Shown: positions 1,136 through 30,438, numbered from the stretch's first letter. The stretch is 32,000 nucleotides of DNA from Mycolicibacterium smegmatis (GCF_001457595.1 NZ_LN831039.1:960001-992000); one strand, 5' to 3'. Numbers and translations are program-made. The notes: generated from the letters alone by a model not told the origin.

Positions 1136-1170
1136 AGCGAATAGATCGACCGTTCGCAGCGTTAACTATT

Positions 1171-1236
1171 GCGAGTGTGAAACCTCTGCGATTTTTTGGC
1201 GATTTATTCGCAGAGGTTTCGCACTCGTCTTTTTGG
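1171..1236 (+). terminator. Candidate intrinsic terminator of the LON-domain gene (first REP-A unit plus T-tract)
   Basis: 20-bp stem: 1171-1190 GCGAGTGTGAAACCTCTGCG pairs with 1209-1228 CGCAGAGGTTTCGCACTCGT. The two non-Watson-Crick positions are G.U wobbles on the plus-strand RNA but C.A mismatches on the minus strand. The stem is followed immediately by CTTTTTGG (T-run 1230-1234). Confidence 0.55.
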
Positions 1237-19595: not shown

Positions 19596-20519
19596 TCACA
19601 CCGGGTAGCTGACGCCGGTCAGCTCTTCTGAGACGGCCCACAACCGGCGTTGCAACTCCGGATCACGGGACTGGGAACTGGATTTCACGAGCTTGGGGTG
19701 TCCGCGCACCTCGCGGAACCCGTCCGGGCCGTAGTACTCGCCGCCCTTGACGCCGGGATCGGTGGCCGCGCGCAGCGTCGCCAGCGCGCCCATCAGCGGG
19801 CTGTTGGAGAACAGGCTCGCGATCTGGTGGTAGCCGGGCAGCCCGGTGCCGGGGATGTGCCGCATGAGTTCGGTGTTCGACAAACCGGGATGGGCGGCCA
19901 CCGAGATGGTCGGCTTGCCTGCCGCGGCGAGGCGACGCTGAAGTTCGTACGCGAACAACAGATTCGCGAGCTTGGACTGGCCGTACGCCTCGACCCGGTT
20001 GTAGCGGCGTTCCCACTGCAGATCCTCGAAGTGGATCTTGGCGCGGATGCGGTGGGCCACGCTGGCGACGGCCACCACGCGGGAGCCCTCGACCGGCAGC
20101 AGGTTGTCGATGAGCAGACCCGTCAGCGCGAACGGCCCCAGATGGTTGGTGCCGAACTGCAGCTCGAACCCGTCGACGGTGGTCTGCTTGGGCGGATACA
20201 TCACGCCGGCGTTGTTGATCAGCAGGTCGATGTGCGGGTAGGCGCTCTTGAGTTCGTCGGCCGCGGTGCGTACGGAATCCAGTGACCCCACGTCCAGCTT
20301 CTGCAGCTTCAGATCGGCCTTGGGTGTCGAGGCCATGATCCGGTCCACGGCATCGCGGCCCTTGTCCAGGTTGCGCACCGCGATGACCACGTGCGCGCCC
20401 TTGGCGGCCAGCACCCTCGCGGTCTCGTAACCCAGTCCGGTGTTGGATCCGGTGACGATGGCCACCCGGCCTGATTGATCGGGAACGTCGGCCTCGGTCC
20501 ACTTCGTGTCGGCGCTCAT
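19596..20519 (-). CDS. Short-chain dehydrogenase/reductase (SDR) family oxidoreductase
   Basis: I place the start at ATG 20519 (MSADTKWTEADVPDQSGRVAIVTGSNTGLGYETA). It carries TGxxxGxG, NNAG and the YGQSK catalytic motif. The 307-aa product is of the Rv0439c type by position. Confidence 0.85.
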   Translation of the reverse strand: MSADTKWTEADVPDQSGRVAIVTGSNTGLGYETARVLAAKGAHVVIAVRNLDKGRDAVDRIMASTPKADLKLQKLDVGSLDSVRTAADELKSAYPHIDLLINNAGVMYPPKQTTVDGFELQFGTNHLGPFALTGLLIDNLLPVEGSRVVAVASVAHRIRAKIHFEDLQWERRYNRVEAYGQSKLANLLFAYELQRRLAAAGKPTISVAAHPGLSNTELMRHIPGTGLPGYHQIASLFSNSPLMGALATLRAATDPGVKGGEYYGPDGFREVRGHPKLVKSSSQSRDPELQRRLWAVSEELTGVSYPV

Positions 20520-20556
20520 GGCTCGAACAATACGGTTCCTCGGGCATGCTCGACGC

Positions 20557-21096
20557 ATGGACCGCGAAGGTGAGGAGTATTCGGGCAGCACCGCATCGGG
20601 ATTGGTTTTGCTCGACCCGTCGAACCCGCCGAGCCGCAAGGCGCCCCTGGCGTGGGCGATGGGTGCGGCGATCCCGTGGTCGATGCTGGTCTTCGGACAG
20701 CTCGTGTGGCTTCTGTTCGATCGCAGGATGCTGTGGCTGCACGGTCTGGCCGCGGTCGCCACGGCGGCGGGCATCGTGCTGTTCGTGGTGATCGTGCCGC
20801 TGTGGCGGTACCGCGTGCACCGGTGGGACATCAGCGTCGACACCGCGACACCCGCGGTGTACACCCGCACGGGGTGGCTCGTGCAGGAGCGGCGCATCGC
20901 GCCGATCTCCCGCGTGCAGACCGTGGACACCTACCGCGGTCCGTTGGACCGGTTGTTCGGCCTGGCCAACGTGACCGTGACGACGGCGTCTTCGGCCGGG
21001 GCCGTCCGCATCGTCGCACTCGACGTCGACGTCGCCGACCGGGTGGTGGCGCTGCTGACCGACATCGCCGCGATCGGTGAACAGGACGCCACATGA
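20557..21096 (+). CDS. Bacterial PH domain (bPH_2) membrane protein, YdbS-like
   Basis: Two TM helices are followed by one bPH_2 repeat (YTRTGWLVQERRIAPISRVQTVDTYRGPLDRLFGLANVTVTTAS). I chose ATG 20557 as the start because the track start at 20506 would overlap the divergent SDR gene start. Confidence 0.75.
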   Translation: MDREGEEYSGSTASGLVLLDPSNPPSRKAPLAWAMGAAIPWSMLVFGQLVWLLFDRRMLWLHGLAAVATAAGIVLFVVIVPLWRYRVHRWDISVDTATPAVYTRTGWLVQERRIAPISRVQTVDTYRGPLDRLFGLANVTVTTASSAGAVRIVALDVDVADRVVALLTDIAAIGEQDAT

Positions 21097-22592
21097 CCGC
21101 ACCACCGCAACCGCCCGGTGCCGGGCCGCAGTGGCAGCGGCTGAGCCCACGCATGCTGCTGGTGCATCCGGTACACGAAGTGCTGCAGCAGATACCGCTG
21201 CTGGTCGGTTCGGTGGTGCTGGGGTCGGCGACCGGCAACCCGCTGTGGACGGTGGCCGCGATCGTGCTGACCATCCTGTTCGGGCTGGCGCGGTGGTTCA
21301 CCACCACCTACCGCATCGAACCGAACGAGGTGCAACTGCGCACCGGCGTGCTGCAACGCAAGGTTCTTGCGGTGCCGCGCAACCGGATTCGTTCGGTGTC
21401 CACCGACGCGCGGCTGCTGCACCGCGTCATGGGGCTCACCGTGCTGCGGATCAGCACCGGCCAGGAGGCCAAGGGCGACGCCGAGTTCGCGCTCGACGCC
21501 GTCGAAGCCGGTCAGGTGCCGCGGCTGCGTGCGATCCTGCTGGCCGATCTGGCCGACGCGAGTCCCGAGGAGCACGTGCCCGCTGGACGTGAACTCGCCC
21601 GCTGGCAGCCGGCCTGGCTGCGGTACAGCCCGCTGAGCTTCACGGGCCTGGCAATGATCCTCGCGGCGTTCGGCATCGTGTACCAGGCAGGGGCGGGTGC
21701 GCTGATGCGCGATTCGGCGTTCGCGCAGTCCGGTCTGGATGCCGCCGAACGACTCGGTGTCGCGGTCAGCATCGCGATCGTGGTGGGTGCGGTGCTGGTC
21801 GCCTCGGTCGTGCTGTCGGTGCTGCGCTCGTTGCTGACGTACGGGAATCTGGTGCTGACGCGGCGGGACGGCCCAGGCGGTGACGGAGTACTTCACTTGC
21901 AGCACGGGTTGCTGCGCGTGCGTGAACACACCTACGACACGCGTCGGCTGCGCGGCGGGACGCTGCGTGAACCGTTGCTGGTGCGCATGTTCGGCGGTGC
22001 GCGACTCGATGCGGTGATGACGGGCATCGGCGGCGAGGGCGAGGCGTCGCTGCTGTTGCCGCCGTGCCCGGCAGCGACGGCCCGTGGTGTGTTGACCGCG
22101 CTCATCGGGCGTCCCGACGCGGTGTCGGGCCCGTTGCGTCCCCACGGGCCCGCCGCCACGCGCCGCCGCTGGACCCGCGCCCTGGTACTGCCGGTGATCG
22201 CGCTGCCCGTGCTCGCCGTCGTCGGCGTCCCGGTGTGGGCATGGGTCCTGTGGGCGCTGGTCACGGTGGCCGCGGCGCTGCTGGCGGCCGACCGGTCACG
22301 CGCGCTGGGCCACCGCGTCGACGGCGACTGGCTGGTGGCGCAGGCCGGAAGCGTCGAACGCCGGCGTGACTGCCTGCACACCGACGGCATCATCGGCTGG
22401 ACGGTCCGGCAGACACTGCTGCAACGTCGCGCCGGGGTCGCCACGCTGATCGCGGCGACCGCCGCGGGCCAGAAGCGCTACGAGGTGATCGACGTCCCCG
22501 CGGGACAGGCGTGGGCGATTGCTGCCGCGGGGACGCCGTGGATAGCAGACAGTGTCTGGGCCCACACACCCGTGGGGTTCGACTTGCGCTGA
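21093..22592 (+). CDS. Bacterial PH domain membrane protein, YdbT-like (three bPH_2 repeats)
   Basis: 499-aa ORF whose ATG overlaps the upstream stop (ATGA). It alternates TM hairpins with bPH_2-like repeats (LRTGVLQRKVLAVPRNRIRSVSTDARLLHRVMGLTVLRISTG; HLQHGLLRVREHTYDTRRLRGGTL; AQAGSVERRRDCLHTDGIIGWTVRQTLLQRRAGVATLIAAT). Confidence 0.75.
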   Translation: MTAPPQPPGAGPQWQRLSPRMLLVHPVHEVLQQIPLLVGSVVLGSATGNPLWTVAAIVLTILFGLARWFTTTYRIEPNEVQLRTGVLQRKVLAVPRNRIRSVSTDARLLHRVMGLTVLRISTGQEAKGDAEFALDAVEAGQVPRLRAILLADLADASPEEHVPAGRELARWQPAWLRYSPLSFTGLAMILAAFGIVYQAGAGALMRDSAFAQSGLDAAERLGVAVSIAIVVGAVLVASVVLSVLRSLLTYGNLVLTRRDGPGGDGVLHLQHGLLRVREHTYDTRRLRGGTLREPLLVRMFGGARLDAVMTGIGGEGEASLLLPPCPAATARGVLTALIGRPDAVSGPLRPHGPAATRRRWTRALVLPVIALPVLAVVGVPVWAWVLWALVTVAAALLAADRSRALGHRVDGDWLVAQAGSVERRRDCLHTDGIIGWTVRQTLLQRRAGVATLIAATAAGQKRYEVIDVPAGQAWAIAAAGTPWIADSVWAHTPVGFDLR

Positions 22593-22617: not shown

Positions 22618-23433
22618 ATGGCTATCGGTGGTGTGCTCTTCGACATCGATGGTGTGCTGGTGACGTCATGGCAACCGATCGAAGGTGCGGCCCAGACGTT
22701 GCGGGTGCTGGCCGACAACCAGATCGCGCGGTCGTACCTGACCAACACCACCACCAAGACCCGCGTCCAGATCGCCGAACTGCTGACCGCGGCCGGGATG
22801 GACGTCTCACCCGATGAGGTGATCACCGCTGCGGTGCTGACGGCGGAGTACGTGCGTGATCGTTTTCCGGGCGCACGGTGCTTCCTGGTCAACAGCGGCC
22901 GCATCGACGAGGACATGCCCGGCGTCGACGTCGTCTACTCCAGTGAGTTCAGCGGCCCACGCGCCCCGGAGGCTCCCGACGTGGTGCTGCTGGGCGGGGC
23001 CGGACCCGAATACAGCCATCTGACCCTCAGTTGGGTGTACGACTGGATGGCCCAGGGCGTGCCCGTGGTCGCGATGCACCGCAGCACCTCGTGGACCACC
23101 ACCGACGGGTTGCGCGTGGACACCGGCATGTACCTGATCGGCATGGAGGAGACCTCGGGCCGCAAGGCCACCGCCGTCGGAAAGCCTGCGCCGGAAGGTT
23201 TCCTGGCCGCCGCGAGCCGGCTCGGTGTGGACCCCGACGAGATGTACATGATCGGCGACGACCTCAACAACGACGTGCTGGCCGCGCAGGTGGTCGGCAT
23301 GACCGGCGTGCTGGTGCGCACCGGCAAGTTCCGGCAGAGTGTGCTGGACCGCTGGGCCGCAGACGATTTCGCGATGCAGCCCAACCATGTGATCGACTCG
23401 GTCGCCGATCTGCCTGCGCTGCTGGGCCTTTAG
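22618..23433 (+). CDS. HAD-IIA family hydrolase
   Basis: Motif I VLFDIDGVL, motif II LTNTT, and motif IV MIGDDLNNDV. The 271-aa length and cap arrangement are typical of HAD-IIA (NagD-like) phosphatases. Confidence 0.8.
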   Translation: MAIGGVLFDIDGVLVTSWQPIEGAAQTLRVLADNQIARSYLTNTTTKTRVQIAELLTAAGMDVSPDEVITAAVLTAEYVRDRFPGARCFLVNSGRIDEDMPGVDVVYSSEFSGPRAPEAPDVVLLGGAGPEYSHLTLSWVYDWMAQGVPVVAMHRSTSWTTTDGLRVDTGMYLIGMEETSGRKATAVGKPAPEGFLAAASRLGVDPDEMYMIGDDLNNDVLAAQVVGMTGVLVRTGKFRQSVLDRWAADDFAMQPNHVIDSVADLPALLGL

Positions 23434-25330: not shown

Positions 25331-25372
25331 AAAAGAGGAAGCCTCGCACATCGTGTGATGTACGAGGCTTCC
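25331..25372 (-). terminator. Intrinsic terminator downstream of the glycine-rich protein gene
   Basis: The 10-bp stem GGAAGCCTCG (25337-25346) / CGAGGCTTCC (25363-25372) has an inner 5-bp extension (ACATC/GATGT). On the minus strand it is followed by UCUUUUGU (plus-strand AAAAGA at 25331-25336). It lies 36 nt past the stop at 25408. Confidence 0.7.
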
Positions 25373-25407
25373 GTACCTACTGGGGATCTACGCGGCCGTG
25401 CCCGTGA

Positions 25408-28400
25408 TCAGGGGTTGTTGGCGCCGGTGGTACCCGCGGTGCCCGGGGTGCCGTCCGCACCACCGTTGCCGCCGTCTCCACCGTTGCCCCCGTTCCCCGA
25501 TCCGCCTGCGGTGGTGCCACCGGTGCCACCGTTGCCGCCGGCCCCGCCGTCACCGTTGCCGCCCGGGCCCGGCTCGCTGCCGTCGCCGCCGTTGCCGCCG
25601 TTGCCGCCGGTGTTGTGCTCACCGTCGGCGGTCTGGCCGCCCGACTTCCAGACGCTGGTGTTGCCGCCGTCGCCGCCGTTGCCGCCGGTCGCTCCGCCGG
25701 TGCCGTTGACACCACCGTCGCCGCCGTTGCCGGCCACCGCCGAGGAGTTGGCGATCTTGCTGCCCGCGGGGCCGGCCGGGTCGTACGCCTGCACCCAGCC
25801 GTCGGCGCCCTTGCCGCCGTTGCCGCCGTTTCCGGCGCCGCCGTGTCCGGAGATCGCGGTGCTGTCGGTGATGGCACCGTGGATCGCGGCGATGTTGCTG
25901 AAGCCGCCGGCCCCGCCGGTCGCACCGGCCGCGGTCGCCGCGCCGCCGTCTCCACCGACGGCGGTGTTACCGGTGGCGACGCCGGTGGTCCCGGCCGCCA
26001 TCACCAGCGCGTTGCCGCCGTTGCCCGCGATTCCGCCGTTCGAGGCTTCGCCGCCCTTGCCCGCGGTGGCCGTGCCGGTGGCGTTGCCACCGAGGGTCGA
26101 GCCGTAGCCCGACTGGACCCAGGATGTTCCGCCCTTGCCGCCGTGGCTGGCCGCGCCGGTGGCCTTTCCGCCGGCACCGCCGGTCGCGGTGCCGATCGCG
26201 GAGCCTGGATTGGCCGCGTTCGCCGTCGTGTTGACGACGCCGTCTCCGCCGTTGCCGCCCAAGCCGCCGTCGATGCCGTCACCGCCGTTACCGCCGGCGC
26301 CGATGCCGGAGGCGACGGCGCTCGGGCCGTTGGCCTCGATGGTGCCCTGGCCGCCGTTGCCGCCGTGACCACCGTTGAAGCCGTTGCCGCCGTGGCCGCC
26401 CGTGGCCGTTCCGCTGGCCTGGGGATTCGCCTGAACCACGTTGTAGGCGACGATCGTCGCGGCGCCGCCGGTGCCACCGGTGGCGCCGAGGGTGCCGCCG
26501 TTGCCGCCGTCACCGCCGGTGGCGGTGCCGCTGGCGTTGCTGCCGATGACGGTCGCGCGGATCAGCGCCTCACCGCCGTCACCGCCCTTGCCGCCCCTGT
26601 GCCCGTCGGCGTCACCGTTGCCGCCCTTGCCGCCGTTGCCGCCGGTCGCCGTGCCGGTCGCGGTTCCGTTGTTGACCCGGATCCGGCCTGCGCCGCCGTT
26701 GCCGCCGTTGCCGCCGGCACCGGTGTGCGATGGGTCGACGTACGTGCCGCCGTTGCCGCCGTTTCCGCCGTTGCCGCCCTTGCCGCCGTTTCCGAAGCCG
26801 ACTCCGCCGGCCCCGCCGTTGCCGCCGAGCGCGCCGTCGCCGCCCCGGCCGCCGTCACCACCGTGACCACCGGTGCCGCCCTCACCCTCGCTGACACCAC
26901 CGGCGCCGCCTGCGCCACCGTTTCCGTTCGCACCGGCATTCACGAAGGTGCCGCCGTCACCGCCGCGGCCACCGTTGCCACCCGTGTCGGTCTGACCGGT
27001 CGAATGCTGACCGTTCGCCTTCCACACGGAGGCGCCCGCGCCATCGCCGCCCCGGCCGCCGATTGCCCCGCCGGTGCCGTTGAAGCCTCCGTCGCCACCG
27101 TTGCCGCCGGCTGCCTTGCCCTTGTCGATGGTGGTGCCCGCCGGGCCGTTCGGGTCGTAGGCCTGGACCCAGCCGTTGCCGCCGTTGCCGCCATTGCCGC
27201 CCTGAGCGGCGCCACCGTGTCCGGAGGTCGCCGAGCTGTCGGTGATCGAGCCGTGGATGGCGGCGATGTTGGTGAAGCCGCCGTTGCCGCCGACTGCACC
27301 GTTCGCACTGGCCGCGCCGCCGTTGCCGCCGATCGCGGTGTTGCCGGTGGCGACGCCGGTCGCCCCGGCCGCCATCACCAGGGCGTCGCCGCCGTTGCCG
27401 CCCTTACCGCCGTCGGACGCCTTGCCGCCGTGGCCTGCCTTGGCGGTACCGCTCGCCTTACCACCGGTGGTGGGGCCGTAGCCCGCCTGAACCCACGACG
27501 TTCCACCCCTGCCGCCCAGGCTGTCCGCACCGCTGGCCGAGCCGCCGTCACCGCCGGCGGAGATTCCGGTGGCCGAGCCGTCGGCACCTGAGTAGATCTC
27601 GCCCATGCCACCGGCGCCGCCCGTGCCGCCGTCGATTCCGTCGCCGCCACGGCCGCCGGTCGCGGTGCCGCCCACGGCGCCGTTGTTGCCGTAGGCGTAC
27701 ACCGAGCCGATCCCGCCGTTGCCGCCGATACCGGTTCCGGTCGAGTTGCCACCGTCGCCACCGCGCGCGGTGCCCTCGGCGGTGCTGCCTGTGCCTTCGG
27801 CGATGAGCCGGCCGGTTCCGCCGGTGCCGCCGGTGCCGCCCGCGGCAGTCGTCGAACCGTTGCCGCCGTTGCCGCCGTTGCCGCCGATGGCGTTGCCGTC
27901 GACGGTTCCGCCGTTGGCCCCGACCAGGATGGCGCCGCCACCGCCGCCACCACCGCCGCCGCCCTTGCCGGGCCCGGCGGCCGTGGACTGCCCGCCGGTG
28001 CCACCGGCACCGCCTGCCCCGCCGCGGGTCTCGGACCCGGCGGTGACGTTGGGACCCGAGATCAGCACGTAGCCGAATCCGCCGTTGCCGCCGTCACCGC
28101 CGTTGCCGGCGGCTCCTGCGGCACCCGTCGAGCCGCTGTGGCCCAACAGGCCGAAGAGCCCGCCACCGGTGCCACCGATCCCGCCGGTGCCCCCGGTGCC
28201 GCCGCCCGTTCCGCCCGTGCCGCCGGTCCCGCCGTCGACATGGGCCGAGGTGCCGTCGGCCCCGACGCCGCCGGTGCCGCCGTCCCCGCTCTGTCCGCCG
28301 GTTCCACCGTTTCCGCCGCTGGCGAACAAGAAGCCGGTGGCGTTGCCGCCGTTGCCGCCGTTGCCTCCGCCACTGCCGACGCCGCCGTTACCGCCGTTTC

Positions 28401-29994
28401 CGAAACCGTTGCCGTGGTCAATGTTCCAGTCACCGGCAGCACCGGTCGCGCCAGCGAGGCCCTTTCCGCCCGCGCCGCCGTTGCCGCCGATCGCGAACAG
28501 CCAACCGTTCGCGTTTCCGCCGTTGCCGCCGGTACCCGCGAGGATGCCGCCGAGCGCCGCGCCGCCGGCGCCACCGGCACCGCCGATGCCCATGAGCAGG
28601 CCACCGCTGCCGCCGTTTCCGCCGTCCAGCCCGGCCCATCCGACGCCGCCGTTGCCGCCGTTGCCGAACAGGCCGGCATTGCCGCCGTTGCCGCCCGCCA
28701 GACCGGCTGCGCTGCCGTCGTATCCGTGGCCGCCGTCGCCGAACAGCAGACCGCCGTTGCCGCCGTTGGGGTTGTCGGCGGTTCCGTTGATGCCGTTGCC
28801 GATCAGGTACTGGCCGGAGATGGTGTTGATGACGCCGCCGAGTGTGGACCCGATGGGGCTGACCACCCAGAACTGTTGTCCCGCAGCGTGCAACGGCTGG
28901 TAGATGAGCCAGTTGACGATCTGGGTGGGGTCGAGCACCGCCGACGCCACGGTGGGAACCGGCAGCTGTGCCTGCGGGTTCACCGTGGTGCGCATCGCGG
29001 GGTCGGAGTACATCGGCTGACGGCGCGCCCACGCCATCACCGCCCAGACACCGGGCATGTCAGCAGGTTCGGTCGGTGCGTTCGGGATCAGCGTGGTGCC
29101 GAGCGTGACGACGGACAGCAAGCCGCTGATCGGCCGAAGTGAGGGTGCCGCGGGCGCCGGGTCGGTGGCCGGTGCTTGCACCTGCCGGGCGACCTGCGCA
29201 GTCGGTTGTGCGCCGAGCGAGTCGCTGGTGGGCTGATCGGTCGTGTTTGTCGAGGTGGCCTGCTGCTCGACCGGATCGGCGGCGGTGTCGCGGCCCTGAG
29301 GCTGCGTGACGCTCGGGGTCTCGGAATCCGGTGCAGTGGTGGGCCGTTCCCATCTGGGTTTCAGGTCCGGCAGCGGCGACTCGGGCGCGAGGGCTGCCGG
29401 GAACTTGGGCTTGCGCAGCGGGCTTCTGGCGTCGTCGGTGTCGGAGGGTTTGAGTCCGGCGCCCTCGGCGAAATCGCTGAGGGTCTTTCGGACCTCACCT
29501 GCCCGCTCGCGGAGACGCTCGTGCACCTGCTTGAGGTTCGGATGCCGCGGAGTGCCGAATGAGTTTCTGTCCCTTGTGGTCTCACTGGGCGTCTGCTCGG
29601 CGGACTGGCGATCGCTGCGGTGGTTTCCGACCCTGGTCCGCGGTGCGTCGGAGGGCCTGTTGTGCCGTGGCGTACCGATTCGGGGCGTCCCGTTCGCGCC
29701 TGTTGCTCCCGGCCGGAAGTGGCGCGGCCGGTCGGCGCTGCCGGTCGAAGACCCGTTACCGGCGGTGGTGGCGCCACCGGAGGCTGATGGCGAGTTCGAC
29801 GCACCGTCGCTCGTGGAACCTTCGGTGCTGAGGAGTTGCACGTCCGCGGTCACCGATCGCATGGTCGGCGAATCCGGCCCCAACAGCAGCATGACGCCGG
29901 CGCCCGCAAATGCGACGCTCGCCAGGCCGGCCGACGCAATCGGACGTGACAGGCTCCGTTCGCCGCGAGCTCTCGCTGCTCTGTGCTTCGCCAC
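25408..29994 (-). CDS. Large glycine-rich PGRS-like repeat protein with N-terminal signal/anchor sequence, no PE domain
   Basis: This is the single uninterrupted 4.6-kb minus-strand ORF. I place the start at GTG 29994, 4 nt after AAGGAG; the track ORF starts 32 codons earlier without an RBS. The N-terminus [39 protein letters not shown] is basic then hydrophobic. Next come ~250 aa of Pro/Thr/Ser/Arg-rich low-complexity sequence, a ~110-aa non-repetitive Trp-containing segment, and ~1,130 aa of GGxGGx repeats. Plus-strand ORFs over the same span are fragmented into several frames. Confidence 0.85.
25573..26290 (-). repeat. Intragenic repeat module, copy 2 (~238 aa) of the glycine-rich protein
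   Basis: GGDGIDGG...[11 protein letters not shown]...[20 protein letters not shown]...[22 protein letters not shown]...[13 protein letters not shown]...SVWKSGGQ. Anchor Trp codons at 26121..26119 and 25650..25648 are each exactly 1,374 nt from their copy-1 counterparts. Boundaries are approximate. Confidence 0.75.
26947..27650 (-). repeat. Intragenic repeat module, copy 1 (~234 aa) of the glycine-rich protein
   Basis: GGDGIDGG...[11 protein letters not shown]...[20 protein letters not shown]...[22 protein letters not shown]...[13 protein letters not shown]...SVWKANGQ. Anchor Trp codons are at 27495..27493 and 27024..27022. Boundaries are approximate. Confidence 0.75.
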
Positions 29995-30306
29995 ATTTCT
30001 CCTTATCGCTGAGCTGTGATGGATGACACGATCGTCAATAAGTGAGAGCGAGCTAACAGCATTCACGGGGAAATGTTCAAGCGATTGCAACGAAATTGAT
30101 CATGATCCGACGGGCGCGTCCGCGACGGATTGCCGCGACGGAATATGATTTGAACTGCGATAACCAAGATCTGCGACGCCGCTGACGGGCCTTTCTTGCG
30201 TCGAGGAATCTTTCGAAGCGCAACAAAAGTGGCAGCGGTCTCCCACGAGTGGCGGCGGCAGGTTAGAACACGTTCTATGGGCGCGGTCAACGCCGTCGCG
30301 CGACAC

Positions 30307-30336
30307 GGACGCCCACTCCTGTCGGAGCGGGCGTCC
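30307..30336 (-). terminator. Candidate stem-loop terminator (no U-tract) downstream of the XDH-family gene
   Basis: GGACGCCCACTCC (30307-30319), loop TGTC, GGAGCGGGCGTCC (30324-30336) form a 13-bp stem. The single non-Watson-Crick position is A.C on the plus strand but a U.G wobble on the minus-strand RNA, which favours function on the minus strand. It lies ~100 nt past the stop at 30439. No U-run follows. Confidence 0.4.
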
Positions 30337-30438
30337 GATAGCTGATGTCAACCCGCCGAGGAGCGGCGTCCAATGCGCCCCGCGGGAAACGTGTACCGAC
30401 TGTCGAAAAACAGCAAATGGTCTGCGTGGAGTGCGCGA

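Follow-up and report, generated by a model that had tools for sequence, protein, structure and literature searches.

A PGRS-domain protein of Mycolicibacterium smegmatis that lacks a PE domain and begins with a putative Sec-type signal or anchor

Introduction

How does a PGRS array come to stand on a protein without a PE domain in a fast-growing mycobacterium, and how might such a protein leave the cell? The host, M. smegmatis, grows fast and by the usual counts has no pe_pgrs genes (PMC12209268, Table 1). The PGRS proteins examined by experiment are all ESX-5 substrates (PMC9436101, PMC13578627). The gene considered here lies in a 32,000-nucleotide stretch of M. smegmatis DNA, called the window below. 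M. smegmatis is not known to have ESX-5.

The gene has appeared in the literature before. A 2025 review (Biology (Basel) 2025;14:247; PMC11939664) lists MSMEG_RS04235 as an M. smegmatis “PE_PGRS” whose N-terminus is “questionable”. The same review lists an M. neworleansense orthologue, Mnewor_PGRS1, and cites unpublished RNA-seq in which expression in M. smegmatis is reported. The window protein is the product of the same gene. It is 98% identical to Msmeg_PE_PGRS_RS04235 (PMC11939664, Table S1), with the same C-terminus, and to an M. smegmatis ‘PGRS repeat-containing protein’, the name that NCBI also gives to the orthologues. A first reading, made from the sequence alone, had overstated the novelty of PGRS repeats in this context, since the gene and Mycolicibacterium PGRS proteins were already in the review and the orthologues already named. 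What is new relative to the literature is the correct N-terminus of MSMEG_RS04235. The protein would count as a non-PE, Sec-type variant within a known domain family.

The gene and its start

The coding sequence is a single open frame on the minus strand, ending in a stop codon (Table 1). Its longest possible version extends to a TTG at 30090, and the supported start is the GTG at 29994. This GTG and its ribosome-binding site are kept in 8 orthologues; GGGAGAA occupies the equivalent site in an alignment of the upstream regions. GC3 is 0.48 in the 32 in-frame codons upstream of the GTG, compared with 0.85 in the coding sequence. Likewise, an independent gene caller, run on 6 contigs that had each been assembled independently, picked this GTG. 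The sequence-only reading had described one minus-strand gene with this start, its own ribosome-binding site and its own terminator, and frame, conservation, GC3 and gene caller all agree with it. It was also right about an AT-richer upstream region (61% GC at 30091-30438, compared with about 68-70% elsewhere in the window) and about the neighbourhood. A scan of the window's open reading frames gave a CDC48-type AAA protein, pssA, psd, moeA, SDR, bPH, HAD and a helicase. A scan for the sigma-70 consensus gave no match; the conserved TATTGACG box is a possible promoter element.

Table 1. Features of the gene and its product, with window coordinates
Feature	Position	Strand	Remarks
Coding sequence, 1,528 aa	25408..29994	-	allele of M. 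smegmatis MSMEG_RS04235
Ribosome-binding site AAGGAG	29999..30004	-	4 nt 5' of GTG; read from the sequence
TATTGACG box, about 40 nt upstream of start	30033..30040	-	conserved across 8 orthologue upstream regions
Intrinsic terminator	25337..25372	-	16-bp stem, 4-nt loop, T-rich tail TCTTTTGT
Basic n-region, aa 1-18, assigned cytoplasmic	29941..29994	-	net charge +5
Hydrophobic putative signal/anchor segment, aa 19-39	29878..29940	-	KD19 maximum 1.95 at aa 19, spanning aa 19-37
Juxtamembrane segment, aa 40-60	29815..29877	-	column identity 0.89, top value in N-terminal 430 aa
Pro/Ser/Thr/Arg-rich stalk, aa 61-285, variable	29140..29814	-	P29, T26, S23, R23 among 225 residues
Conserved segment, aa 286-355	28930..29139	-	specific to Mycolicibacterium orthologues; KD19 1.3, below TM threshold
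Pre-PGRS helical hairpin, aa 356-397	28804..28929	-	AF2 helices aa 356-393; GRPLI-like GQYLIGNG at end
Classical PGRS array, aa 398-640	28075..28803	-	PF21526 at aa 398-467; G(L/F/W)(L/F)xGxGG motifs; Gly period 3
Gly-rich module 1, aa 641-1075	26770..28074	-	repeat of about 35-39 residues, short beta strands
Gly-rich module 2, aa 1107-1528	25411..26676	-	includes conserved C-terminal unit of about 234 aa

The published and RefSeq sequences of MSMEG_RS04235 begin at Met157, which is 156 codons too late and leaves out the N-terminal anchor segment. The listed M. neworleansense sequence begins just past that segment (MTADVRLV...). Because both listed starts fall after the anchor, the anchor went unseen in PMC11939664 and the presence of a PE domain was left open there. 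In 15 Mycolicibacterium orthologues, the start reads V(G/A)KH... and is followed by a hydrophobic segment. The gene is syntenic in them, adjoining the helicase, and their ORFs measure about 1,300-3,300 aa, or 1,362 to 3,383 aa from stop to stop.

Compared with the published allele, that of strain mc2 155, the window allele has about 98 extra PGRS residues. The gap in mc2 155 falls inside the classical PGRS array. Since M. fortuitum keeps the segment absent from mc2 155, the longer form is ancestral.

The N-terminal segment and the stalk

The protein had been described as starting with a basic and then a hydrophobic signal or anchor segment, and this description holds. Residues 19-39 are the sole segment of the protein with KD19 above 1.6, the transmembrane threshold. 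The net charge is -2 behind them (aa 40-60) against the positive charge ahead, in agreement with the positive-inside rule. The segment has a column identity of 0.87 over the 15 orthologues, and together with the juxtamembrane residues it forms the best-conserved stretch of the N-terminal 430 aa. The evidence supports an N-terminus built like a Sec-type signal or signal-anchor in its n-region and h-region.

For a plain signal peptide the segment is long and its conservation very high, and a proline follows it, which makes cleavage uncertain. The LLLG|P that closes the hydrophobic stretch is unfavourable for signal peptidase I. A possible signal-peptidase site is the A-[FL]-A at aa 28-30 (A-F-A here), which lies inside the hydrophobic stretch. 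The Tat motif S/T-R-R-x-F-L-K was looked for and is absent, the n-region having no RR pair. A scan of the protein found no LPXTG motif, as had been claimed, and with a cysteine count of zero there is no lipobox Cys.

The stalk has a column identity of only 0.08-0.55 and is presumed to be disordered. Behind it, a weaker hydrophobic stretch at aa 287-303 (KD 1.3) has merely 15 residues between prolines and is missing from relatives with signal peptides. If it were a transmembrane helix, the PGRS region would sit inside the cell, which would count against export.

Absence of a PE domain

The protein is a genuine PGRS-domain protein without a PE domain in a fast grower. Down to E 1, the listed Pfam matches include no PE domain (PF00934, a helical hairpin of ~90-110 aa), and a custom PE HMM found nothing in a six-frame translation of the 32-kb window (best E 0.8). 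This agrees with the earlier claim of no recognisable PE domain, and the six-frame search equally revealed no type VII targeting domain of the PE kind upstream in another frame. In orthologues, the frames upstream of the start are closed within about 100 codons and hold no PE-like sequence. The 440-bp upstream region has no coding signal, that is, neither GC3 bias nor a PE signal.

The hairpin before the PGRS array

The array is preceded by a helical hairpin in which the columns Y, H, W, I-N and YLIG-G are invariant among relatives. It carries the motif YxPxH rather than YxxxD/E. At the junction with the array (aa 394-405) stands a GRPLI-type motif, as described for PE_PGRS proteins (PMC9436101), which aligns with the GRDLIGNG of PE_PGRS11-type proteins.

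The hairpin module is common to M. tuberculosis PE_PGRS11 and to PGRS proteins with signal peptides. Among the 150 best-scoring hairpin-bearing relatives, at least 73 have a signal-peptide-like N-terminus and 15 have a PE domain. In Mycolicibacter paralogues and in PGRS-enzyme fusions, a cleavable signal peptide (...AFLAFGMTPL..AP.A.A|D) lies directly upstream of the hairpin. The fusions join signal peptide and PGRS to a GH5 cellulase or to a PecA-like protease. Since the signal peptides of those relatives are cleavable, the PGRS part homologous to theirs should lie outside the cytoplasm, and these relatives strengthen the case for a Sec-type N-terminus here. Some Mycolicibacter relatives with RRRR could be Tat substrates.

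The glycine-rich region

The earlier reading spoke of about 1,130 residues of GGxGGx repeats. The region is glycine-rich (41% Gly over aa 398-1528), but it is not uniform, being a classical PGRS array followed by two modules of about 430 aa each that are 57% identical. The PGRS domain PF21526 matches aa 398-467 (E 3.8e-12, 46.9 bits compared with a gathering cut-off of 27) as the sole Pfam match among those listed; in any PGRS array the model reaches no further than the first ~70 residues. Thus, of the PE, PGRS and RTX domains proposed for an HMM search, the second was recovered and the other two are missing among the matches listed.

In AF2 models, aa 399-447 reach a pLDDT of 84-89 without DSSP secondary structure, and aa 448-632 stay below 50. 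Residues 625-960 give a pLDDT of 82.6 and a pTM of 0.84, with strands every 35-39 residues, from very shallow alignments. Hydrophobic autocorrelation peaks at the same lags of 35-39. The C-terminal unit and the corresponding end of the M. peregrinum orthologue share 68% identity. Elsewhere, PGRS has been modelled as a polyglycine-II sandwich (PMC9436101), and an AF3 sail fold has been reported for the mc2 155 allele of MSMEG_RS04235 (PMC11939664).

Proposed explanation and alternatives

The protein is probably a cell-envelope protein conserved in the clade of fast-growing Mycolicibacterium, in which a non-PE, Sec-type N-terminus carries the PGRS array. What is observed is the architecture, the lack of PE, the pattern of conservation, the homology between PE_PGRS proteins and the hairpin plus PGRS, and how prevalent signal peptides are among relatives. 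Sec dependence, topology, anchoring or release, envelope location and function are suggested by the sequence.

In this explanation, the basic tail and the 21-residue hydrophobic segment would target the nascent chain to SecYEG in an N-in/C-out orientation. The segment would then be retained as a type II signal-anchor, or cut at A-x-A. The stalk of ~225 residues could act as an extended spacer through periplasm and cell wall. The hairpin with its GRPLI-like motif would cap the start of the glycine-rich fold, which may comprise a polyglycine-II type PGRS segment and then the two duplicated beta-rich modules. At a guess, the acidic head with its periodic hydrophobic edge would be a scaffold, structural or adhesive, located at or within the mycomembrane or cell surface.

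One variant of this explanation differs in anchoring. Here signal peptidase I would cut after A-[FL]-A and release the protein, which would touch wall and mycomembrane only via the glycine-rich head. The A-x-A stands at the same position in 15/15 orthologues, and Mycolicibacter relatives have obvious A-x-A|D sites. However, the motif sits in the middle of the hydrophobic stretch. The nine hydrophobic residues after it, together with the juxtamembrane peptide, show the highest conservation, which suits a retained anchor. Release is possible but the less likely outcome. Type VII secretion, of a PE_PGRS whose PE was missed or by co-secretion with a partner, is improbable. It would conform to every PGRS protein studied so far and to the question left standing in the review, and a route independent of type VII would be without experimental precedent, because export in slow growers needs ESX-5. 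Against it stand the missing PE signal in all six frames, the conserved start codon with its non-coding upstream region, the YxPxH hairpin, the absence of esx, WXG and PE/PPE genes among the window ORFs scanned and the lack of a known ESX-5 in this species.

Two further alternatives concern the repeats themselves. The first reading had pointed to RTX-like calcium-binding nonapeptides, which would make the protein a beta-roll adhesin. Matches to GGxGxDxUx are indeed present above chance (9 loose and 5 strict, compared with 2.5 and 0.39 in residue shuffles), and among the weak top Foldseek matches are beta-helix proteins, the AlgE4 A-module for one. Yet the strict matches (aa 780, 865, 1234, 1246 and 1393) are scattered and never tandem in a 9-residue register. 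Glycine recurs with a period of 3 and hydrophobics with one of 35-39 rather than 9 or 18, and HemolysinCabind (PF00353) does not appear in the list of Pfam matches, which goes down to E 1. A structural search of the models against the PDB gave no significant match (best E 0.011, query-normalised TM-scores up to 0.25). The calcium-binding reading fails on these points and is very improbable. Least credible of all is an artefact, either a spurious frame in GC-rich repeats or an assembly in which repeats were collapsed or expanded. The DNA does have a 9-nt period and 72-76% GC, many database orthologues are partial at contig ends, and the mc2 155 allele is shorter. Nevertheless, the in-frame GC3 is that of a coding sequence, and protein-level conservation extends over at least 15 species with synteny. 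Long and nearly identical repeats are lacking, the longest internal one being 300 nt at 76% identity. Exactly this 1,528-aa product recurs on 6 contigs from separate runs in two sequencing projects, and M. fortuitum keeps the segment that mc2 155 lost.

Comparison with known systems

PE_PGRS proteins of slow growers, such as PE_PGRS11 (Rv0754) and PE_PGRS33, share with the M. smegmatis protein the Pfam PGRS array, its GGx triplets and its G-phi-phi-x-G-x-GG edge motifs. The entry motif GQYLIGNG corresponds to GRPLIGNG or GRDLIGNG, and with PE_PGRS11 the entire Y-x-P-x-H...W-I-x-S-x-x-G...I-N hairpin is shared. Both have an acidic glycine-rich face and a length that is polymorphic between strains. 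Unlike them, the present protein has a basic tail, a hydrophobic anchor and a 225-aa stalk in place of PE and YxxxD/E, and its C-terminal two-thirds are beta-containing repeats of 35-39 residues rather than plain PGRS.

The signal-peptide PGRS proteins of Mycolicibacter (the M. terrae complex) and Mycobacterium spp. also combine hairpin and PGRS with a non-PE hydrophobic export signal. They carry the NCBI name ‘PGRS repeat-containing protein’ too. They differ in their short cleavable signal peptide (Arg-rich n-region, AFLAFGMTPL, A-x-A|D) without a long stalk. They are usually much shorter, occur in many copies per genome, and some have C-terminal enzymes.

The polyglycine-II/polyproline-II antifreeze proteins of springtails (PDB 2pne, 7jjv) likewise have glycine at every third position. 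The Foldseek matches to them are weak and not significant (E 0.016-0.05, target-normalised TM 0.23-0.29). In contrast to them, the modelled modules have DSSP beta strands and a 35-39-residue super-repeat, and there is no functional relation. The springtail fold is the structural template proposed for PGRS.

Meaning for the PGRS family

PGRS proteins occur beyond the slow-growing pathogens, and beyond type VII secretion too if the Sec reading is true. From the taxonomic spread, an ancestral route for PGRS display is plausible. It is tentatively suggested, at somewhat short of even confidence, that PGRS with the GRPLI-type hairpin arose as Sec-exported envelope proteins in the common ancestor of Mycolicibacterium, Mycolicibacter and Mycobacterium, and that capture by PE and ESX-5 came later in slow-growing pathogens. 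On that reading, MSMEG_RS04235 with its corrected N-terminus would offer a genetically tractable, type VII-independent model of the passage of a PGRS sail through the wall and of its contact with the mycomembrane.

Start codon and integrity of the gene

The PGRS gene lies in a single long ORF on the minus strand, which ends at 25408 and in its longest version extends to TTG 30090. An earlier reading, made from the sequence alone, had chosen GTG 29994 as the start, and the ribosome-binding site, conservation among orthologues, GC3 and an independent gene caller all agree with this choice. An AAGGAG at 30004-29999 is separated from the GTG by a 4-nt spacer. The GTG is conserved in an alignment of eight orthologue upstream regions, as are a GGGAGAA-type ribosome-binding site and, about 40 nt further upstream, a TATTGACG box. 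In the 32 in-frame codons that precede the GTG there is no third-position GC bias (GC3 0.48), compared with 0.85 for the coding sequence and 0.77 for codons 1-156. The independent gene caller gives an identical 1,528-aa product on each of six contigs, which were assembled separately and come from at least two sequencing projects.

Repetitive DNA raises the possibility that the array was collapsed or expanded in assembly. The repeat DNA of the gene has a 9-nt period, but the longest duplicate inside it spans just 300 nt (76% identity). Together with the agreement of the six contigs, this makes such an artefact unlikely.

The flanking signals proposed earlier were recovered as well. At 36 nt past the stop there is an intrinsic terminator whose 16-bp stem is followed by a T-rich tail, and the AT-richer upstream spacer of about 440 bp has 61% GC, against about 68-70% elsewhere in the window. 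A sigma-70 promoter scan gave no match for the gene, and Rfam gave no riboswitch or RNA element upstream of it. In seven orthologous loci (L001-L007), a conserved CTGAGAAAAAGCTGAGAT element precedes the start codons by about 200 nt; the window's upstream region does not contain it.

The neighbours are housekeeping genes, as first described: a CDC48-type double AAA ATPase, pssA, psd and moeA, then an SDR gene. Further neighbours encode a bPH protein, a HAD hydrolase and a ResIII helicase. The same side of the PGRS gene also carries genes for Mrp antiporter subunits, a histidine kinase and a TetR/SRPBCC protein, and a molybdopterin xanthine/CO-dehydrogenase-type large subunit lies on the other side. 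One candidate partner gene with apparent paralogues beside PGRS genes, “orf19663”, was rejected. This Arg-rich 495-aa frame is a shadow of the SDR gene that it overlaps, and its tblastn “paralogues” near PGRS genes elsewhere come from translating SDR genes in a wrong frame.

Architecture of the protein

Features of the PGRS protein (aa, counted from GTG 29994) and side features of the window (nt)
Feature	Position	Properties
Basic tail	aa 1-18	net charge +5
Hydrophobic segment (anchor)	aa 19-39	KD19 1.95; sole segment above the usual TM hydropathy threshold
Juxtamembrane segment	aa 40-60	net charge -2
Codons absent from annotated M. smegmatis entries	aa 1-156; nt 29527-29994	annotated start Met157 (MHERL...)
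Pro/Ser/Thr/Arg-rich stalk, length variable	aa 61-285	column identity 0.08-0.55
Conserved segment confined to Mycolicibacterium orthologues	aa 286-326	
Motif-rich module (hairpin)	aa 356-397	Q-x-W-V-x-S-P-x-G...V-I-N...S-G-Q-Y-L-I-G-N-G; helical hairpin by AlphaFold2
Modelled helical hairpin	aa 356-393	pLDDT 58-78
Pfam PGRS match	aa 398-467	
Typical G-phi-phi-x-G-x-GG edge motifs	aa 398-640	
Modelled segment without DSSP structure, as expected of polyglycine-II	aa 399-447	pLDDT 84-89
PGRS segment of ~98 aa, variable between strains	aa ~470-575; nt 28075-28803	absent from mc2 155 allele and P0206
Modelled short strands, regular spacing	aa 633-949	pLDDT 70-93
Modelled short strands, regular spacing	aa 1103-1385	pLDDT 72-88
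Modules 1 and 2	aa 650-1075 and 1107-1526	57% identical to each other
Ms_IGR-8 (Mycobacterium sRNA), Rfam match	nt 1158-1220 (+)	47.1 bits (gathering score 44), E 3.8e-07; between LON-substrate-binding-domain gene and Mrp antiporter genes
Long shadow ORFs	nt 25355-29142 (+) and 19663-21150 (-)	
Shadow ORF opposite the PGRS gene, for example	nt 25615-27591 (+)	658 aa

With these charges on either side, the hydrophobic segment has the charge pattern typical of a Sec signal or signal-anchor oriented N-in/C-out. Across the N-terminal 430 aa of 15 Mycolicibacterium orthologues, column identity is highest at aa 21-60 (0.87-0.89). At aa 28-30 a conserved A-[FL]-A triplet, a possible signal-peptidase site, lies inside the hydrophobic run.

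In PE_PGRS proteins the entry to the PGRS domain is marked by a GRPLI motif (PMC9436101), and a clear counterpart ends the hairpin. The single Pfam PGRS match directly after it does not mean that the remainder is something else, since the 73-position model covers just the first ~70 residues after the LIGNG motif in every relative tested. Glycine has a period of 3 throughout, and hydrophobic residues in the modules recur every 35-39 residues. The last ~234 aa share 68% identity with the C-terminal end of the M. peregrinum orthologue, and a 3,329-aa orthologue has two copies of this unit.

AlphaFold2 was applied to 1,199 residues (aa 330-1528) with a 13-row alignment; the mean pLDDT is 58, but parts are modelled confidently, as the table shows. 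With module 1 (aa 650-1075) as query, no homologue was found at E<=1e-5, probably owing to composition filtering, so the modules were modelled from a 2-row alignment. Modelled alone, module 1 (aa 625-960) reaches pLDDT 82.6 and pTM 0.84, with a strand group about every 35-37 residues. The models suggest a confident, repetitive, solenoid-like Gly-rich fold, which, given the very shallow alignments, is a lead and not a result. A search of the PDB by sequence found no match, and Foldseek against the PDB found nothing significant for either the 1,199-aa model or the 336-aa module.

An alternative view of the array, also raised from the sequence, is that it contains RTX-type calcium-binding repeats. 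Matches to GGxGxDxUx do occur, nine loose and five strict, and exceed those in residue shuffles (2.5 and 0.39), an excess explained by the non-random GGx register. However, they are scattered, without 9- or 18-residue periodicity, and no HemolysinCabind match appears among the Pfam matches listed down to E 1. RTX-type calcium binding is not supported.

Identity and published annotation

The supplementary sequence Msmeg_PE_PGRS_RS04235 of a 2025 review (PMC11939664) matches the protein from aa 157 to an identical C-terminus. By this match, the ORF is identified as an allele of MSMEG_RS04235 in an M. smegmatis strain other than mc2 155. Its product is 99% identical to a 130-aa metagenomic fragment and 98% identical to a [quoted passage not shown] from the 90% cluster of that fragment. 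The segment missing from mc2 155 and from the partial M. smegmatis protein P0206 is retained in the M. fortuitum orthologue. M. smegmatis strains are thus polymorphic in PGRS length, the difference being in frame, and the longer form is likely ancestral.

The annotated M. smegmatis start cuts off the anchor. Likewise, M. conceptionense P0004 and M. neworleansense “Mnewor_PGRS1” are annotated from MTADVRLV, immediately past the anchor. These starts point to a systematic RefSeq-style miscall that hides the membrane anchor in several species, which is probably why the architecture has been missed so far. Truncated annotations may also conceal use of the anchor on other proteins; a search with the N-terminal 72 aa found one 109-aa fragment only, and so gave no indication that the anchor serves other proteins as a portable sorting signal.

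The review reports PGRS-domain proteins in M. smegmatis and related Mycolicibacterium, sail-like in AlphaFold3 models and expressed according to unpublished RNA-seq. It calls their N-terminal annotation “questionable” and states that a PE domain “needs experimental confirmation” (PMC11939664). Other recent papers confine PGRS proteins to slow-growing pathogens (PMC12209268, PMC13578627): one gives pe_pgrs = 0 for Mycolicibacter and Mycolicibacterium (PMC12209268 Table 1), and the other describes PGRS proteins as not conserved in M. smegmatis (PMC13578627).

The PGRS domain, the gene as an M. smegmatis PGRS protein (PMC11939664) and the NCBI name of its orthologues, “PGRS repeat-containing protein”, are established, so a PGRS protein in a fast grower is not new. 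What is new is the N-terminal architecture: for MSMEG_RS04235, neither a corrected start with a conserved anchor nor an explicit absence of PE was found in the searchable literature. Searches there also returned no account of the hairpin shared with PE_PGRS11, of the predominance of signal peptides among relatives, or of the duplicated beta-rich modules.

Absence of a PE domain

The original claim that there is no PE domain holds. An HMM made in-house from the N-termini of four PE_PGRS proteins has no match in any of the six translated frames of the whole window (best E 0.8), and the three frames upstream of the gene are full of stops.

Orthologues were found in 14 further genomes, including M. 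peregrinum, M. senegalense, M. fortunisiensis, M. llatzerense and M. frederiksbergense, with stop-to-stop lengths of 1,362-3,383 aa. All those recovered start V(G/A)KH..., with the same anchor next. Their frames close within ~100 codons upstream of this start and contain no PE-like sequence there. Several adjoin the same helicase (92% identical). In M. peregrinum and M. frederiksbergense a second paralogue of ~1,370 aa, with the N-terminus MAKHRAVGTNSWW..., lies between the helicase and HAD genes (L014 10001-13345, L013 10001-13348). The window has no such paralogue; there the two genes abut at 23430-23433.

The hairpin-plus-PGRS family

A library-wide HMMER search with aa 284-440 found 216 cluster representatives at E<=1e-3. 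Among the best 150, the PE HMM flags 15 and at least 73 are signal-peptide-like, the others being mostly fragments; these counts are approximate, as they rest on the in-house HMM and a crude signal-peptide heuristic. Stereotyped signal peptides have an Arg-rich n-region, G-A-F-L-A-F-G-M-T-P-L and then A-P-x-A-x-A|D, and are typical of Mycolicibacter (M. terrae complex) genomes, with many copies each.

In some signal-peptide relatives, hairpin and PGRS are followed by a GH5 cellulase or, in Mycolicibacter acidiphilus, by a PecA-like aspartic peptidase. A further architecture joins PGRS to a beta-propeller. PE-linked forms include M. tuberculosis PE_PGRS11, arranged as PE, hairpin, PGRS and phosphoglycerate mutase. 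Since the hairpin-plus-PGRS cassette follows three different N-termini (a PE domain, a cleavable signal peptide or, as described here, an anchor plus stalk), it is a mobile unit. In the signal-peptide relatives the cassette must lie outside the cytoplasm. An extracytoplasmic cassette is expected here too, by homology, and this speaks against a weak hydrophobic stretch at aa 287-303 as a second transmembrane helix.

Non-PE PGRS-enzyme fusions with signal peptides were noted: P0116 (Mycolicibacter acidiphilus) and P0049, P0054, P0079, P0138 and P0046 (Mycobacterium spp.). They include one PecA-family aspartic peptidase and several GH5 cellulases. Protease homologues in fast growers are described as lacking both PE and PGRS (PMC13578627), whereas the M. 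acidiphilus protease has PGRS and lacks only PE.

In a neighbour-joining tree of the ~80-aa hairpin, which is unbootstrapped and omits the present protein owing to the HMMER bias filter, most PE-linked copies fall in one 30-tip clade. The tree was not used as evidence on the direction of evolution.

Two further matches were noted. At L012 5623-12303, in a MAG labelled Gordonia sp., a 2,226-aa ORF has a signal peptide, Gly/Ser/Thr-rich repeats, the hairpin and a long Gly-rich array; either PGRS proteins extend beyond Mycobacteriaceae or this contig was mis-binned. P0027 (5,306 aa) has a signal peptide of another kind, and 28 stretches of it match the GGxGG part of the query; it is probably a Gly-rich repeat protein unrelated to this family, from a different phylum.

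Proposed mechanism and significance

In the proposed model, Sec would target the protein in an N-in/C-out orientation, after which it would remain anchored or be released by cleavage at A30. The ~225-residue stalk, presumably disordered, would span the periplasm and wall. Pro/Thr/Ser-rich Sec substrates of mycobacteria are often O-mannosylated, and the same is predicted for the stalk. The acidic Gly-rich head, with its periodic hydrophobic edge, would then contact the mycomembrane or surface, with which PGRS “sails” have been proposed to associate (PMC9436101). The function is probably structural or adhesive, a putative role.

The prediction that a PGRS protein is exported independently of type VII secretion is well motivated. 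PGRS biology is usually framed as a branch of ESX-5 secretion and virulence. If a conserved PGRS protein does carry a Sec-type anchor, the PGRS fold would be separated from type VII secretion. This would suggest a housekeeping role in the envelope, from which the virulence-associated family expanded, and would offer an easy system for knockout and localisation in a standard laboratory species.
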